Positions 1 to 45,144 of a stretch of DNA of 45,144 nt are shown piece after piece. Made by a program: the position numbers and the translations under genes. The stretch is from Escherichia phage vB_EcoS-CHD2B1. Where the stretch lies: the sequence record MZ234026.1. One strand, 5' to 3'. The notes under the pieces are model-generated. The model saw only the letters and a program-made list of their open reading frames with translations, had not been told where the DNA came from and made no database searches. Each line of letters begins with the position of its first letter. The stretch's first letter is position 1.

Positions 1-137
1 GCGCACTCATGATGTGTTGGTGTGCCCGTGCCGCAAACTGGCGCGCATAGTCTACGTTGCCGTTTGTGTTTTTTGCTTCGTCCAGCTTCGCTATGGCCCG
101 TGAGTATTTCCAGATTAATGCTTTCATTGTTCGGTCC
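1..137. repeat. Terminal overlap: 1..137 is identical to 45008..45144 (circular-assembly overlap or short terminal redundancy); contains the 5' end of the minus-strand gene 44839..45144
   Basis: Direct comparison of the first and last 137 nt of the window; both read gcgcactcatgatgtgttggtgtgcccgtgccgcaaactggcgcgc...ttaatgctttcat. Confidence 0.9.
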
Positions 138-149
138 TCATGTTGGTGT

Positions 150-180
150 GCAACCAATTTAGCAGGGTGCCAGGCTGAAT
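150..180. promoter_or_regulatory. Pair of TGCAACCAA motifs upstream (minus orientation) of gene 44839..45144
   Basis: gtgcaaccaattt...gaatgcaaccaatatt; same 9-mer recurs in many intergenic regions of this genome. Confidence 0.4.
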
Positions 181-339
181 GCAACCAATATTAATCATGC
201 GTATGAAAAAGCCGATCCCTATCTGCTGTAACTGCAAACTGCATTTTTCACTCACCATAATACAACTCGCATTGGTTGCCTAGTTCATCAACGACCGCAA
301 TTCACATCATGTTGCCGTGTGTTATGCAATCCCGGATTT

Positions 340-513
340 TATGCAGTCTCAGACGAGGGGGGCCAACTGACCCCCGTCTAGTCTGAAAGACTGGGGTTTG
401 TCCCGCCTGTCCCGCTCCCCTGCAAGCCGCGTAATCCGGGGCGGGACGGGGGTGCTGTCCCGCTTTGTCCCGCCCCCTGGCTGTCCCGCTTTTTGTCCCG
501 CTTACTTTATGCA
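340..513. repeat. Iteron element copy A: two adjacent hairpins followed by about five GTCCCGC direct repeats and GCGGGAC inverted copies, flanked by TTATGCA motifs
   Basis: About 170 bp near-identical to 28536..28704; non-coding by position (between primase stop at 608 and gene start at 137). Confidence 0.8.
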
Positions 514-607
514 ATAAAACTGCATAACTATTCACTATATTTACACTACACGGCAACCAATGCGACCAGCTAAAAACACTCAATTTGGCAACCAATGCGC
601 GCAAAAT

Positions 608-2872
608 TTAATCTTTCAGGTCATCATCGGTCGCTGAAAGCGTGATGGGTATATCCGATTTTATGACCAGATTCGACGACCCATAGATGGCCCCGGTGTG
701 TGGATCTGTATAAAATCCGAGCACGCCGCGCTCCACCATATCGTCAATTGCCTTCGTCGATGTGCCACCTTTCGCAAGTCCAGCCTGGCGGACGATTGCC
801 GATTTACTGAATCCAGTATGGTCCGGGTTATCTTCCATCAGTTTTTCCAGTGCCGCATAAAGCACCTTCTCTTTCTCGTTGCGCGGTCCGGCGGTGTTCT
901 CTTCCTTAACTGCTGCCTTGCCTGCTGCCTTAGCCTGTTCGATAGCGAACGGCGCCAGGGCGACCGGTACGAGGTAAAGAGTCTCGTCGCGTGGCGTGGA
1001 GGCAATTGGCTTGACGTCCCAACCGGCAACCACATCGCCGAAGTCTGGCCCGGTGCTGGTGGACTGGTGGGCTTCGAACGCATCAGACTTACGGAGATCC
1101 ACCTTAACTTTGCACTTGAGCAGGACGAAGCCACGCGGCGCTTGCTTGATGCCGTTACGTGACTTTTCGTGATACAGGTTAAGCTGGCCTGGCTGATTAT
1201 CGTCCGGCTGTTCCAGGAAGAACGCAGAATCTACAGCACCATGAAGCGCGCCGGACCCGCGTGGTGACCTGCTGCCGTTTGCACCCTTAGCCGGGTGATG
1301 GATGACACCCGCACTGCCACCTGTATTTTCCGCAATGGACTTCAGCGCCTTGACCACTTCGCCCATATCGCTTGCGTTGTTCTCGTCGAACGGTTTGGCA
1401 TCAGCGGACCGCAGCGCTACAGTCTGGTTGAGTGAGTCGAAGGCCACCAGGCCAACCGGCTCCCCGTTAGCGGTGCGGTTGATAAAGCTGATAACCTCGC
1501 GCAAGCCTGACTTGCTGGTAATATCCCAGCCGCGTGATTGCAGGTCGATAATGTGCAGCTTGTCGAGGTCGTGCTCGTATTTAATCTGCAATGCTTCCTT
1601 ACGCTGGTTGGAGGCTTCGCCACCTTCCGCATCGAAATAGAAGCAATGCGACTGGACGACCTTCGCGCCACCGAACGGAATCCCCGCGGCAACAGCGCCC
1701 ATCTGGCCCAGCACGTAGAACGACTTACCAATGTTCGACTCACCCGCCATATACCAGGTAGATTTGAAGTTGACCAGGCCTTCGATAATCGGGTCGTGCT
1801 TACTGAACAGAGCGACCGGCTCGTTGTCCAGGTCAGCGTCGGTGCATTCGCCGTACTCGTCGCCGTCTCCGACCGCATCAACAATATGTTCATAGCACGA
1901 TTCCACTTCCTCGTCGTCCAGTCCGGGAAGGATGGCGGCGATTTGCTTGCGTGACATGTTGTGTGGCTCGACGTTCAAGTGGTCCGGGATGCCGATCAGA
2001 CGCAGCGCCAGGTGCTGGTGTTTATTCAGTTCGGAACAGAATTCGTTGCCGGTGTGCATACACTTGAAACGGATCTCGCCATCCTTAACCATGATAGCCG
2101 TCGACCCGCCGCCGCTATGCAGGTGCTCGTTCGGGCAAGGCACTTCATAACCGCGACCGGATGACAGTGGTTCAAAGCCAGCCTGGAAGCACCAATCCAG
2201 AATGCCGTCCGCCACGCCATCGGCGCCCTGGGTCAGTTCGCGGCGCACTTCCTCTTTCTCCACTCCCAGCTTGTCAGCCAGGCGAAGCAGACGACGGACA
2301 CGGGCGCGCTTTCCGTAGTGGCACTTTATGACAGACTGCTGGTGAGGCAGGTACATAAGGCGGTTGGTGTCTTTCGTACAATCGTCGAAGTCCACATCTG
2401 ACAGGCCCAGTTGGTCTAATAGCGCATACTGGACGCGGCCCAGGTCTTCAGCCGGTACAGGCTTGTCAGTGAGCACCAGGAAACGGGCGCAACGTGTGCC
2501 GCCTTTCAGTGGGTGACGGTCGCCGGTTGTGGTGTGGAATACGTGCTCCAGGCCAGCGTCGGTGAACGCCTTACGGCAGCGGCGTAAGGTGCGGGTGTCA
2601 GTGCGGTCAATATCGAAGAACAGGATCGAGCGGTCGACCGCACTGGTCTTGCGGCGTAAGCCATCATTGGTATAGGCCACGATGCCATCAGCCTTACGCT
2701 TGCGGCGCGCATACTCGGCTTTATCTTCAGTCTTGTTGATGTGCACCGAGGAGATTTCTTTCGCATCGTTGATAAATTCGAAAAATTCATCAGTGGTCAT
2801 CTCGAAGTTTTCCGCCCTGGCTTTTTCGCCTTTTTTAGCGGGTCTTGTTACTGCGAATTTAATTAAGCTCAT
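608..2872 (-). CDS. DNA primase/helicase (N-terminal primase-polymerase-like domain, Cys/His zinc-binding motif, C-terminal RecA-like helicase with Walker A GESNIGKS)
   Basis: 754-aa ORF; motifs CPNEHLHSGGGS...KCMHTGNE and GESNIGKS...AFDSLN; ATG at 2872. Confidence 0.8.
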   Translation of the reverse strand: MSLIKFAVTRPAKKGEKARAENFEMTTDEFFEFINDAKEISSVHINKTEDKAEYARRKRKADGIVAYTNDGLRRKTSAVDRSILFFDIDRTDTRTLRRCRKAFTDAGLEHVFHTTTGDRHPLKGGTRCARFLVLTDKPVPAEDLGRVQYALLDQLGLSDVDFDDCTKDTNRLMYLPHQQSVIKCHYGKRARVRRLLRLADKLGVEKEEVRRELTQGADGVADGILDWCFQAGFEPLSSGRGYEVPCPNEHLHSGGGSTAIMVKDGEIRFKCMHTGNEFCSELNKHQHLALRLIGIPDHLNVEPHNMSRKQIAAILPGLDDEEVESCYEHIVDAVGDGDEYGECTDADLDNEPVALFSKHDPIIEGLVNFKSTWYMAGESNIGKSFYVLGQMGAVAAGIPFGGAKVVQSHCFYFDAEGGEASNQRKEALQIKYEHDLDKLHIIDLQSRGWDITSKSGLREVISFINRTANGEPVGLVAFDSLNQTVALRSADAKPFDENNASDMGEVVKALKSIAENTGGSAGVIHHPAKGANGSRSPRGSGALHGAVDSAFFLEQPDDNQPGQLNLYHEKSRNGIKQAPRGFVLLKCKVKVDLRKSDAFEAHQSTSTGPDFGDVVAGWDVKPIASTPRDETLYLVPVALAPFAIEQAKAAGKAAVKEENTAGPRNEKEKVLYAALEKLMEDNPDHTGFSKSAIVRQAGLAKGGTSTKAIDDMVERGVLGFYTDPHTGAIYGSSNLVIKSDIPITLSATDDDLKD

Positions 2873-3614: not shown

Positions 3615-4133
3615 ATGTTTGAGCAAATCGTAAACCTGATCACACGCGGCGTAGTAGCACTGGAAACCATCGCTAAGCATTATGAAACTGCTGGCGCTGC
3701 CGTTGGTAAACAGGAAGCGAAGAAAGCCCCGGCTAAGGGCAAGGCAAAAGAAGAAGTAGTCGAAGATGACGACGCTGAAGACGAAGCACCGGCTAAGACC
3801 AAAAAAGCGCCAGCAAAGGGCATGGCTAAGAAAGAAGCCGTAGAAGAAGACGACGCGGACGACGAAGAAGAAGCCCCGGCGAAATCTAAGAAAGCACCGG
3901 CGAAAGGTAAAGGCAAGAAAGATGCCGATCCGCTGAAAGAGATGCGCGACGAAATCAAGCAGTATGCCGCTATTATTGCTGGCGGTGATGACGACGACGC
4001 AAACGACGAATTTGACGACCTGCTGGAAGAATTCGAAATTAAATCCGTTGCCAAGCTGGAAGATGACGACGTGGAAGAGTTCCACCAGGAATTAAAAGCA
4101 ATCGTCGAAACTTATTTCGAATTAGAAGATTAA
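3615..4133 (+). CDS. Highly acidic repeat protein (alternating Lys-rich KKAPAKGK and Asp/Glu-rich blocks); candidate DNA-mimic or host-takeover protein
   Basis: ATG at 3615 with GGAG RBS; in-frame upstream ATG at 3435 has no RBS; repeats EDEAPAKTKKAPAKG / EEEAPAKSKKAPAKG; first gene after the early promoter. Confidence 0.6.
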   Translation: MFEQIVNLITRGVVALETIAKHYETAGAAVGKQEAKKAPAKGKAKEEVVEDDDAEDEAPAKTKKAPAKGMAKKEAVEEDDADDEEEAPAKSKKAPAKGKGKKDADPLKEMRDEIKQYAAIIAGGDDDDANDEFDDLLEEFEIKSVAKLEDDDVEEFHQELKAIVETYFELED

Positions 4134-4748: not shown

Positions 4749-6178
4749 TGGCTATTAAACCAAAGCGCAAAACGCAATCCGGTAGCAATACGGAACACTC
4801 ATTACTCGGACCATCGGGATCTAAAAAATGGATGGGGTGTCCTGCCGCCCTGGTAGTCGAAAAAGGTATCCCGAACGAATCCGGGCAAGCTGCGATTAAC
4901 GGTACGAGTATGCACACCGTATCAGAGGTCGTGTTAAACCGCATCATTGCCGGTGAGAAGAAGCTATCCGCGAAGACGTACAAAGGGTGCTACGTCGAGA
5001 ACGAAGGTAAGGGACCGGTAAAGGCCCACCCGAAAGCACCGAAAGGCGGCGTACTGGTCAACGACGATATGGTGAAACAGTGCGATGCATACATCGACCA
5101 CTGGCGACCGCTCCTTGAAGTGGCGGAGTTTGTTCAGCTTGAAATGCGCGCCGATCTCACCCGCATCTTGCACCCTGGCTTCGAGATAGACGGCAACAAG
5201 GTGAAGACGTTCGGAACTGCCGATATGGTCATGGTCATGAAGAAGACCGACGGCACGCACATGCTTATTGTTGGCGACCTGAAGACCGGGCGACATAAGG
5301 TCGAGGCGAAAGAAAACAAACAGCTTATGTTGTACGCGCTGGGCCTGCTGCGCAAGCTGCAAACCATGTACGACATTACGACCGTTCGCCTGGTAATCTT
5401 CCAGCCGTATTGCGGCGGGGCGTCAGAGTGGGATATTACAGTTGAAGCGCTGGAGATATTCGCTAAGTTTGCATCCAAGCGGGCTACCGCCGCACTGGAA
5501 GCGTACGCCCGCGGCAAGAAGGGACTTACCCGTGCCGACTTCCGACCGAGCGTTGACGCCTGTCAGTGGTGCCGATTTGCGGATCAGTGTAGTGCCCGTG
5601 CTAAGGCCGCCATCGCCACGATGACCCCACCAACGGCAACAGACGAAGACCTGGGCGACGACGTGAGCGTGGCGACAGAGGAAGAATGCGCCAACCACGA
5701 CCGCAATATGGCCCGCGAAGCCCGGAAAGCGGCACGACGTGCGAAGCGTGGCAAGAAAGAAAAAGCACCAGGCGCTATGAGCGCGGCGGAACTGCGCAAG
5801 GCATACGAAGGTCTCGACGCAATGCGCCAGCACATCAAGGCTATCGAGTCCGCGGTATTCAAGGCCGTAATGGCGGGAGATGGCGAATCGCTGGGCCTCA
5901 AGATGGTTGCCGGTAAGGAAGGTAATCGCAAGTGGGCGGATGAGAGCGAAGTGATTGAGGTCTTCACGAAGGCCCGGATCAAGCGCGATGTGATGTACAA
6001 AGAAACATTGCTCAGTCCTACCGATGCTGAGAAGGTATTGAAGGACGAGAAACCGAAAGTGTGGGCGAAATTGTGTGATAAAATCACGCGCGCACCGGCT
6101 AAACCGGTATTGGCACCAATCGACGACCCGCGCCCTGCGTGGTCTGAAGCTACTGATGAGGACTTAAGTAATGAATAA
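4748..6178 (+). CDS. PD-(D/E)XK nuclease, Cas4/RecB-like with C-terminal Cys cluster (DUF2800-type phage exonuclease)
   Basis: 476 aa; motifs GTADMV...GDLKTG...LYALG and CQWCRFADQC; typical neighbour of DUF2815 SSB and family A polymerase. Confidence 0.7.
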   Translation: MAIKPKRKTQSGSNTEHSLLGPSGSKKWMGCPAALVVEKGIPNESGQAAINGTSMHTVSEVVLNRIIAGEKKLSAKTYKGCYVENEGKGPVKAHPKAPKGGVLVNDDMVKQCDAYIDHWRPLLEVAEFVQLEMRADLTRILHPGFEIDGNKVKTFGTADMVMVMKKTDGTHMLIVGDLKTGRHKVEAKENKQLMLYALGLLRKLQTMYDITTVRLVIFQPYCGGASEWDITVEALEIFAKFASKRATAALEAYARGKKGLTRADFRPSVDACQWCRFADQCSARAKAAIATMTPPTATDEDLGDDVSVATEEECANHDRNMAREARKAARRAKRGKKEKAPGAMSAAELRKAYEGLDAMRQHIKAIESAVFKAVMAGDGESLGLKMVAGKEGNRKWADESEVIEVFTKARIKRDVMYKETLLSPTDAEKVLKDEKPKVWAKLCDKITRAPAKPVLAPIDDPRPAWSEATDEDLSNE

Positions 6179-28466: not shown

Positions 28467-28535
28467 TATGCAGTCCCCTTTTTTTATGCAGTTGCCGATT
28501 GACATTGTATCAGCGAATTTCAAACAAACCTTATT

Positions 28536-28850
28536 CAGTCTCAGACGAGGGGGGCCATTGACCCCCGTCTAGTCTGAAAGACTGGGAGTTGTCCCGCCTG
28601 TCCCGATCGGCTGAAACCCGCGGCAGCACTGACGGGGACGGGGTGCTGTCCCGCTTTGTCCCGCCCCATGTTTGTCCCGCTTTCTGTCCCGTTTGTTTTA
28701 TGCACGAAATCTGAATAGGTATGCACATTTAGGGGCTGGACGGATCGGGACGTCCCGCTCGTCCCGCTTTGAGTTTATGCAATGAAAGTGAGTAAGTATG
28801 CAGTTTTGCAAAACGGGACAAAGCGGGACGTCCCGTTTTGTCCCGCTTCA
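28536..28850. repeat. Iteron element copy B (extended): same hairpins and GTCCCGC repeats as copy A, plus extra CGGGACGTCCCG palindromes and TATGCACA motifs
   Basis: 28536..28704 aligns with 344..513; extra iterons 28740..28850; lies between the GT chaperone stop (28851) and tape measure start (28466). Confidence 0.8.
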
Positions 28851-29527
28851 TTATGCGGGGTTTTGTTGCGCCATTTCGTCAAGCGCGATTCGCTCCATTA
28901 GCTTTATATCTTTAAATGCACGTTGCTCGTTTTCGATGCCGTGCATCTTAAATAGCCATTCCAGCACGCCGTAGTCGATGCCGTATGCGCCACCGAATCC
29001 GGTGCGCCATTGCGTGGAGCAATCTGTGAAGACTGCGACTATCTTCGCGTTGTCGGGCCATAGCGCAACAGGTGGACAAACATCCTCGGGGGCCGCGCCC
29101 CATAAACTAGCGGCTAAATCTTCGGAGGGTGGCGGCGGGCCATAAAAGCGTCGCGCCGCCTCAATCAGTTTTTTTCACGCAATCCCATCAATTCGAGATA
29201 GTACGAGGTGTGGAACACGCCGAACGCGCGCGGGTAGTTGACCACCAGGCGGCGGACGTTCTCAGCGTTAAATTGGTCTGGCAGATTCCAGCCTTCAGCG
29301 ACGTGCATGATGGCCGCAACCATAACGTTAAAGCCGTCCGGGTCATTGTCGTCATATTCCGACAGCTTGCGCTCGGTGTCCTGCATGGTCTGCGAAAACT
29401 CGTCGATCGGGCGGTGGCGGACGGTAAAGGTCATCTTGCCCGGCTCGTTCTCACCAGGGCGCGGGATCTCAATCGGCAGCTTAAAGGTCGGCTTAGGGTC
29501 AAGTGTAAAGAGTGGTGCTTTAGCCAT
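28851..29527 (-). CDS. Tail assembly chaperone G/GT fusion made by programmed -1 ribosomal frameshift (slippery A AAA AAC at 29168..29174)
   Basis: -1 frame is open for ~105 codons from the slippery site to TAA at 28851..28853, checked codon by codon. Confidence 0.7.
29165..29527 (-). CDS. Tail assembly chaperone (lambda G-like), zero-frame product
   Basis: 120 aa; ATG 29527 with GGAGAA RBS; ends GLREKN-stop with slippery GAAAAAAAC. Confidence 0.75.
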   Translation of the reverse strand: MAKAPLFTLDPKPTFKLPIEIPRPGENEPGKMTFTVRHRPIDEFSQTMQDTERKLSEYDDNDPDGFNVMVAAIMHVAEGWNLPDQFNAENVRRLVVNYPRAFGVFHTSYYLELMGLREKN

Positions 29528-44838: not shown

Positions 44839-45144
44839 TTATTTCGCAAGCTGGGCGAATAGTTCGCGCTGTGCTTTAATCCGGGCGACGTTTGTCACTG
44901 CCTTATCGCCAATACCGAAGCGATAGGCCAGGCGCTCACGGGAGAATGCCAGCGCGTATTCATGGATAGCCTTACGCAGCGGACCCAGGTCATCCATGCT
45001 GGCGTCCATATCGTCGAGCGCACTCATGATGTGTTGGTGTGCCCGTGCCGCAAACTGGCGCGCATAGTCTACGTTGCCGTTTGTGTTTTTTGCTTCGTCC
45101 AGCTTCGCTATGGCCCGTGAGTATTTCCAGATTAATGCTTTCAT
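44839..45144 (-). CDS. Hypothetical protein (101 aa); its start codon is the last 3 nt of the window and is duplicated at 135..137
   Basis: ORF with GAGGA RBS visible at 138..160 when the overlap is circularised. Confidence 0.5.
   Translation of the reverse strand: MKALIWKYSRAIAKLDEAKNTNGNVDYARQFAARAHQHIMSALDDMDASMDDLGPLRKAIHEYALAFSRERLAYRFGIGDKAVTNVARIKAQRELFAQLAK

Follow-up and report, generated by a model that had tools for sequence, protein, structure and literature searches.

Escherichia phage vB_EcoS-CHD2B1 (MZ234026.1) is an HK578-like siphovirus of the genus Dhillonvirus, and the 45,144-nt stretch analysed here (the window) is its complete genome, 96-98% identical to those of the E. 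coli phages WFI, WF5505 and 101114B2. We studied an element of short direct and inverted repeats (iterons) next to a palindrome, which occurs twice in this genome, once at 340-513, 3' of the helicase-primase gene (copy A), and once upstream of the tape-measure gene (copy B). We found that the iteron sequence changes among related phages together with the last ~100 residues of the helicase-primase, a domain predicted to fold as a winged helix. Taking this co-variation into account, the element is probably where the phage's own initiator acts in cis, either as an iteron-type origin of replication or as a helicase-loading site. An earlier note on this DNA had proposed either an origin or a multi-site operator for an unidentified DNA-binding protein. 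The origin reading has gained comparative evidence, in that the module stands beside the helicase-primase gene in two phage taxa and its iterons change with the winged helix, while origin activity itself is what we infer. As for the DNA-binding protein, the winged helix is now a specific candidate, replacing the phage helix-turn-helix (HTH) protein and host DnaA, which the note had put forward.

Layout and conservation of the element

A BLAST search with region A, the non-coding gap that holds copy A, against the genome aligned 339-513 to 28531-28704 on the same strand (84.6% identity over 175 bp, E 3.8e-31), confirming two direct copies where they had first been placed. Global alignment of 340-513 to copy B, a check suggested at that time, gave 149 identical positions out of 172 and three 1-nt indels. 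Because such frame-breaking indels occur between orthologues as well, and because the mismatches cluster in the spacer, we regard the element as non-coding, as originally described. These grounds argue against a gene in spite of the mismatch counts by position modulo three (10, 11 and 2).

Genes occupy the minus strand from 3212 down through the start of the window, and then from its end down to ~19.6 kb. As the flanking genes lie on this strand, the element is best read on it (hereafter the gene strand). Copy A does adjoin a replication gene, as had been noted: it lies 3' of the helicase-primase stop codon at 608, within a 479-bp gap, and its palindrome lies 215 bp past that codon, before the next gene. 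Measured along the genome, copies A and B are separated by 17 or 28 kb. Bases 1-128 of the window recur at 45017-45144, an assembly overlap indicating a circular or circularly permuted genome with a true length of ~45,016 bp; the overlap affects the list of open reading frames (ORFs) at the genome ends.

The heptamer GTCCCGC was found 23 times in the genome, against 8.3 ± 2.8 expected, a count that none of 100 shuffled sequences reached, and 15 of the 23 copies fall within regions A and B. Seven of them lie in 400-501, six on the plus strand and one inverted (441-447). Read on the gene strand, copy A thus holds six direct GCGGGAC sites and one inverted site at distances of 9-16 bp, close to a helical turn, a repeated short site as seen in iteron arrays. 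Eight exact copies lie in 28591-28846, and for the hexamer GTCCCG there are 7 sites in copy A and 13 in copy B (28591-28845). The direct and inverted repeats described earlier are therefore present, but copy B is larger than had been stated, consisting of a core equivalent to copy A and two extra palindromic iteron clusters. The extra clusters are interleaved with TTATGCA/TATGCA pairs, and the second coincides with a putative terminator in the annotation of phage WFI.

In place of the two adjacent hairpins first described, the foldable structure is better seen as one imperfect palindrome of ~50 nt with a small alternative hairpin. On the gene strand of copy A its arms read CAGTCT tt CAGAC t AG ac GGGGG and, beyond the loop, CCCCCC T CGTCTG AGACTG; the alternative local hairpin is AGTCT-ttc-AGACT. 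Folded as DNA, the palindromes gave dG values of -12.6 to -14.3 kcal/mol, with z scores of -2.9 to -3.9 relative to shuffled sequences. On the other side of the iterons, the 40-bp stretch 500-539 has a GC content of 27.5%, compared with ~54% for the genome, although it is short and also carries conserved boxes; copy B has patches with 32-40%. One of these boxes is a TGAATAGTTATGCA box on the gene strand (515-527 region), which is kept in distant relatives. The TTATGCA boxes reported to flank the element are likewise real: the motif occurs 15 times in the genome against 6.0 expected, with 8 of the 15 in regions A and B.

The repeats had already been flagged, descriptively, in the record of the congeneric Sodalis phage SO-1 (GQ502199), whose element is 92.6% identical to copy B. 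There, two repeat_region features, A and B, carry the wording 'direct, inverted and palindromic repeat sequences; sequence similarity with region B; possible ...', with region B of SO-1 corresponding to our region A and vice versa. Our literature search retrieved no analysis of the layout of the element, of its occurrence in Guernseyvirinae or of a connection to the helicase-primase C-terminus, and the link to that domain is newly described here.

The conservation of the element in related genomes, which the earlier note had advised examining, proved complete in a set of 14 Dhillonvirus genomes from IMG/VR and GenBank, all of which carry both copies; two matching places were also found in most of ~158 GenBank records. 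Between genomes, copies A are 84% and copies B 82% identical, whereas A and B are 70% identical within a genome and 67% between genomes. The higher identity among equivalent copies indicates that the duplication predates the sampled genus and that both copies have been maintained with little gene conversion. No variation was seen in the columns of the iterons, of the palindrome stems and of the TGCATAA/TATGCA boxes, while loops and spacers drift. Two relatives, L043 (4990-5345) and L045 (~5000-5710), have one or more additional reverse-strand genes after the chaperone gene and before the repeat region, so that the gap between chaperone and region B is a tolerated insertion spot. The gene table of Edwardsiella phage eiAU also shows a gap of ~870 bp at this position.

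The same module is present in distant phages, directly after a homologous helicase-primase gene (37-45% identical), in Guernseyvirinae and metagenomic relatives. The carriers are Pantoea phage AH01, Hafnia phage TS33 and Salmonella phage FSL SP-031, which are Guernseyvirinae, together with L024, L025, L029, L171 and L172. On the gene strand the layout starts with one or two TGAATAGTTATGCA boxes and 3-4 direct iterons ~12, 16 and 10-13 bp apart, continues with 1-2 inverted iterons, a spacer of 33-42 bp, 2 direct iterons and a composite palindrome, and ends with TTATTCA/TATGCA boxes, ACGGCA[AG]C and, in the distant relatives, a near-consensus sigma-70 promoter. The iterons are lineage-specific yet related (CGGGACA, CGGACAA, CCGACA, GGGATAA, GGGATGA and GGGGGAGA). 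A gapped pattern TCCGACA...TCCGACA was too unspecific for scanning viral contigs.

The outer arms of the palindrome have five distinct sequences, each with a matching partner arm, around a centre of a G-run and a C-run. Pairing has been preserved through complete sequence change in the five lineage variants. This result was obtained by matching arms sequence by sequence, which replaced MAFFT/RNAalifold on the palindromes of all lineages, where an alignment that is not structure-aware gave four central pairs only. Several lineages of the Guernseyvirinae type carry, within the loop or apex of their palindrome, an inverted copy of the lineage's own iteron (Table 1); no clear iteron was seen in the palindrome loop of the present genome.

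In the complete genomes of AH01 and TS33 the module is single-copy and stands beside the helicase-primase gene only, and in the relative L047 the chaperone and tape-measure genes follow each other without a gap. The position beside the helicase-primase gene is therefore ancestral and copy B a later duplicate, which arose in the Dhillonvirus lineage and comprises the whole core with extra iterons.

Iterons and the helicase-primase C-terminus

The protein that reads the iterons was sought among natural recombinants. The helicase-primases of AH01 and L024 are 96% identical in their N-parts (~660 aa) and only 49% identical in their C-terminal domains, and the iterons of the two phages differ, CGGACAA in the former and CCGACA in the latter. 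At the DNA level, identity falls from ~90% to ~50% exactly at codon ~664, stays there through the iterons and the palindrome, and then rises to 99% at the downstream promoter. A second pair, P0112 and FSL SP-031, shows 92% identity in the N-part, 52% in the C-terminal domain and different iterons. Conversely, L024 and P0112 share the same iteron, with N-parts 82% and C-terminal domains 80% identical. The iteron type thus goes with the C-terminal ~100 residues of the helicase-primase, and neither with the remainder of that protein nor with the HTH protein encoded upstream, and the unit of exchange comprises these ~100 residues, the iterons and the palindrome.

The HTH proteins encoded upstream of the helicase-primase differ by one residue of 72 (XRE-type) between AH01 and L024, although the iterons of these phages differ. 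The unit of exchange excludes the small HTH protein as the determinant of specificity and points to the C-terminal domain, so that the phage HTH protein named in the earlier note is probably not the reader. Moreover, the HTH protein is of the XRE type in Guernseyvirinae and of the HTH_23 type in Dhillonvirus, while the module is common to both. Neither a RepC-like gene nor, in the replication module, any further candidate initiator gene could be recognised. A 380-aa 'putative transcriptional regulator' of SO-1 was also rejected as a DNA-binding regulator. The homologue of this protein (gp58) in the present genome (40555-41697, minus strand) matched calcineurin-like metallophosphatases in Pfam and DNA repair exonucleases in PHROGs, and the regulator label of gp58 is probably wrong.

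In the helicase-primase (754 aa), Pfam recognised AAA_25 alone (aa 357-531), and the PHROGs family name is 'replicative helicase-primase'; searches of the N- and C-terminal parts against Pfam and NCBIfam returned no family, even at E 10. In an AlphaFold model the N-terminal and core domains were confident, the linker (aa 571-660), taken to be long and flexible, was of low confidence, and the C-terminus consisted of three helices and a beta-hairpin. The closest structural match of the core was RSF1010 RepA, placing it among RepA-type hexameric helicases. By fold, the model thus supports a primase domain resembling archaeo-eukaryotic primases (AEP) and a RepA/SF4-like helicase. Modelled alone (predicted local distance difference test up to 92), the C-terminal domain resembled winged-helix binders, namely the MarR family, the globular domain of histone H1, the winged helix of ORC2 and HrcA. 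The phage also encodes its own DNA polymerase I and single-stranded DNA-binding protein (SSB).

The C-terminal domain is rare, with 36 matches among 1.8 billion representative proteins. Most of these belong to the helicase-primase family or are short fragments of its members, and ~12 are multi-repeat proteins, of which the three inspected were all TALE-like. In the Protein Data Bank (PDB) the domain profile matched BurrH alone (4CJ9/4CJA), a TALE-like repeat protein. The matches to BurrH and to the multi-repeat proteins all run through a motif of ~20 residues, GFSxAEIVKxAGxxGG, with 5-12 bits per repeat, while the fold itself is a winged helix; the likeness may reflect a distant relationship or convergence. 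Residues around the GG loop vary between iteron classes.

The protein ends in an acidic tail, D-D-D-L-K-D (608-625, minus strand). The pattern D-x-D-L-x-D is conserved, and its central D-L is kept in nearly all of 30 aligned homologues despite the variable domain that precedes it. The tail recalls the acidic C-terminal tails of T7 gp4 and SSBs, which contact polymerase.

An origin of replication and other explanations

What the computation shows is the repeats and the conservation of their layout, the folds of the domains, and iterons that co-vary with the C-terminal domain. Binding, melting, self-loading and priming are deduced from the behaviour of P4 alpha, RSF1010 and pRN1, and on this analogy initiation could proceed as follows. 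The GCGGGACA repeats would be the target of the C-terminal domain or of the full helicase-primase, and several subunits would use their winged-helix domains to bind the inverted copy as well as the 5-6 direct GCGGGAC(A) iterons. Docking would concentrate or assemble the helicase ring beside the ~50-nt palindrome and the AT-rich flank with its TTATGCA boxes, and the palindrome or flank would open as a cruciform, hairpin or melted region. The helicase would then load itself, the fused primase would prime, and the DNA polymerase I and SSB of the phage would take over. For copy B, both a second origin and an auxiliary site of the kind of P4 crr are conceivable.

Several points weigh against an origin. 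The searchable literature, including that on SO-1, HK578 and Jerseyvirus, yielded no experimental origin mapping for Dhillonvirus or Guernseyvirinae phages, and the GC skew of the genome merely mirrors the direction of transcription. A second origin inside a tail operon would be odd, and copy B has features of a terminator and a promoter. The subgroup L020-L027 has the winged-helix domain followed by plain terminators, with no iterons within 2.5 kb downstream, so adjacency of module and gene is not universal. The third helices of L024 and L025 are fairly similar although their iterons differ; AH01 and P0081, for their part, share an iteron with C-terminal domains only 51% identical. Finally, co-variation shows a linkage to the domain, not that the outcome of binding is initiation rather than regulation.

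A bolder, joint reading would unite iterons, palindrome and the C-terminal ~100 residues of the helicase-primase in an 'origin specificity cassette', self-contained and exchangeable, of a self-loading initiator of a new kind, in which AEP primase, RepA/SF4 helicase and winged helix are joined in one chain, with two origins per 45-kb Dhillonvirus genome, one of them within the tail operon, and with the helix 2-loop-helix 3 segment (GFSxAEIVKxAG-x-GG...) homologous to the repeat unit of TALE-like proteins (BurrH/BAT, MOrTL). As a whole this is speculative, and we think it rather unlikely. If true, the loop residues flanking GG, which vary between iteron classes, would set base specificity.

The main alternative is that the same binding event serves an operator. 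The winged helix or another phage protein would bind the arrays to control transcription, by autoregulation or by promoter timing, and the promoters concerned would be those of the block of small, lysis and head genes after copy A and of the tape-measure and tail-tip genes after copy B. Each copy does lie just upstream of a gene block on the same strand, and an inverted iteron pair beside direct iterons is the classic autoregulatory arrangement of the Rep proteins of iteron plasmids. In distant relatives, near-consensus sigma-70 promoters are found 60-100 bp past the palindrome (TTGACA-N17-TATTGT in L024 and AH01, TTGACT-N17-TATTAT in L025), and a TGnTACAAT-type sequence follows copy B ahead of the tape-measure ATG. 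However, the promoter segment of AH01 and L024 is 99% identical though iterons and palindrome have been swapped, which indicates that promoter and array are separable modules. The array also occurs at two places in the genome only, where a timing regulator would be expected to act at more operons, and in the complete Guernseyvirinae genomes scanned it stands exclusively beside the helicase-primase gene. A hexameric helicase with a tethered sequence-specific domain is, moreover, the architecture of an initiator and not of a transcription factor (PMC4234260). We therefore regard an operator as possible but unlikely.

The stretch after copy B (28468-28530, minus strand) contains GCTGATACAATG, with the TGnTACAAT sequence resembling an extended -10 element, followed by CGGCAAC and two TGCATAA boxes. 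The tape-measure and distal tail genes may have an internal promoter here. A two-hexamer scan for sigma-70 promoters gave none in region A or B and did not report the GCTGATACAATG stretch.

Another explanation, which we find improbable, is that the element punctuates transcription as RNA: the palindrome, and at copy B the iteron palindromes too, would serve at operon boundaries to terminate, process or stabilise the transcript or as a put-like antiterminator, and the iterons would be incidental. Both copies are transcribed in the sense of the flanking genes, at boundaries of gene blocks, and the pairing of the palindrome is maintained by compensatory changes. At copy B, the depositors of WFI placed their putative terminator on an iteron palindrome (~28814-28835), and a pattern scan gave three terminator-like sites in 28746-28861. 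All three, however, are plus-strand matches, and the genes are on the other strand. On neither strand is the core palindrome followed by a T/U run, the gene-strand sequence there being GAGACTGCATAAAA; no terminator-like site was found in 1-700 on either strand, and a scan of the whole genome with Rfam 15 gave no match at the gathering threshold. Nor would an RNA element account for iteron arrays that keep their spacing and change along with a protein domain. At copy B, the additional iteron palindromes may nonetheless terminate chaperone transcripts.

Still less probable is an origin opened by a host initiator, in which TTATGCA would represent weak DnaA boxes or sites for another host factor, with GTCCCGC secondary. 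The enrichment of TTATGCA described above would fit, as would the constancy of the TGAATAGTTATGCA box across lineages with different iterons, expected for a factor common to enterobacterial hosts, and TTATNCACA is matched at 8/9 positions twice in copy B (28698 and 28719). On the other hand, the genome contains no perfect DnaA box, boxes with at most one mismatch number 31 against 27.0 ± 5.1 expected, none of them in copy A, and the phage has its own helicase, primase, polymerase and SSB. TTATGCAGT/AAT fits only positions 1-7 of the 9-mer, bearing out the weak resemblance conceded in the earlier note. An oriC-type cluster of TTATNCACA boxes was accordingly rejected, with counts at chance level, none in A and two in B.

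Least probable of all is a packaging (pac/cos), partition or recombination site with repeated sites for the small terminase subunit or another protein. Repeated direct and inverted sites do resemble terminase-binding arrays such as lambda cosB, and several GenBank records end within region A, at ~229-259; yet the element is present twice and lies ~5 kb from the terminase genes, its array co-varies with the helicase-primase C-terminus and not with the terminase, and record ends in the genus look conventional or arbitrary, the present record being a circular assembly with the 128-bp overlap. The small terminase of a relative matches the GP3_package and Sf6_terminase families only weakly or faintly; in headful phages of that type, pac is usually found within terS or close to it. 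A search of a plasmid database retrieved no DNA similar to the element.

Apart from the iterons, GCAACCAAT recurs throughout the genome, as 14 exact copies and near-copies, mostly in pairs 11-23 bp apart and apparently in gaps between long ORFs (Table 1). It looks like a motif separate from the iterons, through which a phage regulator would act at promoters or operators. At places equivalent to GCAACCAAT, relatives among the Guernseyvirinae have ATGTTGGCTG / CGGCA[AG]C, and an eiAU-like contig (L028/L045) has GCAACCAAC at both repeat regions.

Dhillonviruses and Guernseyvirinae, the latter including Jersey-like Salmonella phages, rank with the small siphoviruses isolated most frequently, and therapy collections make use of them. 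An iteron-type origin read by the winged helix would give both groups a concrete candidate origin and a candidate reader domain, whose specificity is predicted to be swappable by exchanging ~100 codons and ~250 bp. Possible uses are phage engineering, phage-derived replicons and the prediction of replication incompatibility or co-infection cross-talk. The copy in the tail operon raises the question whether a 45-kb lytic phage has two origins, or one and an auxiliary site.

Table 1. Positions of the element, its surroundings and related motifs (window coordinates unless another genome is named)
Feature	Position	Strand	Description
Non-coding region A	129-607	-	479-bp gap from the helicase-primase stop (608) to the next minus-strand gene (ATG 127-125)
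GCAACCAAT motifs in region A, outside the duplicated core	150-596		150, 181, 271 (minus strand), 553, 588
Two TTATGCA boxes beyond the palindrome	322-328, 339-345		Followed by ACACGGCAAC on the gene strand (~307-316)
Copy A palindrome	344-393		~50 nt, imperfect; stems conserved and loops variable in 14 Dhillonvirus genomes
Copy A iteron array, GCGGGAC(A) on the gene strand	400-501	-	Direct 495-501, 483-489, 467-473, 457-463; inverted 441-447; ~25-bp spacer; direct 409-415, 400-406
AT-rich patch adjoining the first iteron	500-545		TTATGCA 507-513, inverted TTATGCA 521-527, TGAATAGTTATGCA box
Helicase-primase, 754 aa	608-2872	-	N-terminal AEP/PrimPol-like domain, Cys/His-rich segment, RepA-type core (aa 357-531), low-confidence linker (aa 571-660), winged helix, acidic tail DDDLKD
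Winged-helix codons, aa ~666-737	662-877	-	Proposed iteron reader, from fold and co-variation with iteron type
HTH_23 / sigma-70 region 4-like protein, 109 aa	2883-3212	-	Upstream neighbour of the helicase-primase, probably not the iteron reader
Non-coding region B	28468-28850	-	383-bp gap from the tail-assembly-chaperone frameshift product (stop 28851-28853) to the tape-measure ATG (28467)
Copy B palindrome	28536-28584		Stems as in copy A; loop tcaatgg (copy A loop tcagttgg)
Copy B core iteron array, laid out as copy A	28591-28691	-	On the gene strand, four direct copies (spacing 12, 16, 10 bp), degenerate inverted copy, spacer, direct pair 9 bp apart
Two extra palindromic iteron clusters, copy B only	28740-28846		CGGGACGTCCCGCTCGTCCCGC 28746-28767; CGGGACAAAGCGGGACGTCCCGTTTTGTCCCG 28814-28845
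GCAACCAAT sites near or in region A	150-158, 181-189, 271-279, 553-561, 588-596, 3403
GCAACCAAT sites elsewhere	6424/6440, 10166/10178, 13107/13124, 15028/15039, 18325, 34415/34429, 41863/41886
Inverted iteron in palindrome loop or apex, L024	~4985-4995		GTCGGA
Inverted iteron in palindrome loop or apex, L168 (AH01)	~45345-45352		TTGTCC
Inverted iteron in palindrome loop or apex, L172	~3710-3716		TTGTCCG
Inverted iteron in palindrome loop or apex, L029	~4916-4921		ATCCCC

Comparison with known origin systems

The element is an analogue of P4 ori/crr, of RSF1010 oriV and of the pRN1 origin, and a member of none of these systems. In the alpha protein of the satellite phage P4, primase, hexameric helicase and an iteron-binding C-terminal winged helix are joined in one polypeptide (PMC4234260). 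The helicase-primase studied here likewise unites a primase with a hexameric helicase and, at its C-terminus, a winged helix, for which iteron binding is proposed. P4 reportedly (Ziegelin, Lanka and colleagues) has two separated regions, ori and crr, with the same iterons in direct and inverted orientation, and copies A and B are similarly two separated iteron regions; the distance between ori and crr is ~4.5 kb, compared with 17 or 28 kb here. The likeness is functional only, as homology to alpha, which has a Toprim primase, an SF3 helicase plus an origin-binding domain of the winged-helix type (PDB 1KA8), was not found: a PDB sequence search for such homology, with the single sequence or profiles of the helicase-primase, gave no match. 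In addition, the iteron sequences differ from those of P4, and both copies here carry a large palindrome.

In the IncQ plasmid RSF1010, iteron binding leads to helicase entry and then to priming at an exposed hairpin (PMC4234260). The present system resembles oriV in that the iterons adjoin a hairpin-forming sequence, the primase is of the AEP type and the helicase core is RepA-like. In contrast, RSF1010 uses three separate proteins (RepC, RepA and RepB') where we find one fusion and recognise no RepC homologue; its iterons are 20-mers, against 7-9 bp iterons at 9-16 bp spacing here; and its ssiA and ssiB lie on opposite strands, against one palindrome per copy.

A further parallel concerns the crenarchaeal plasmid pRN1 and Bordetella phage BIP-1, in which the origin lies just 3' of the replication gene and a stem-loop is needed for replication (PMC4234260). 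The gene order, a small DNA-binding protein followed by a primase-helicase with an AEP-type primase and a C-terminal winged helix, is the same here, and a stem-loop is again found just 3' of the gene. ORF904 of pRN1, however, has an SF3 helicase, which is absent here, making the phage system an analogue and not a member, and the pRN1 stem-loop is ~100 nt long without iterons, whereas ours is ~50 nt and preceded by an iteron array.

In lambdoid phages, the DNA-binding domain of O and the iterons of ori change together as an exchangeable specificity cassette, and the swap of C-terminal domain and iterons between AH01 and L024 follows the same pattern. Unlike lambda, where ori lies inside the O gene and O recruits host DnaB via P, the reader domain proposed here belongs to the helicase itself, with the iterons situated outside the gene. 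By analogy with these systems, the helicase-primase may represent a third, non-homologous solution to combining primase, helicase and reader in one chain, beside P4 alpha and pRN1 ORF904.

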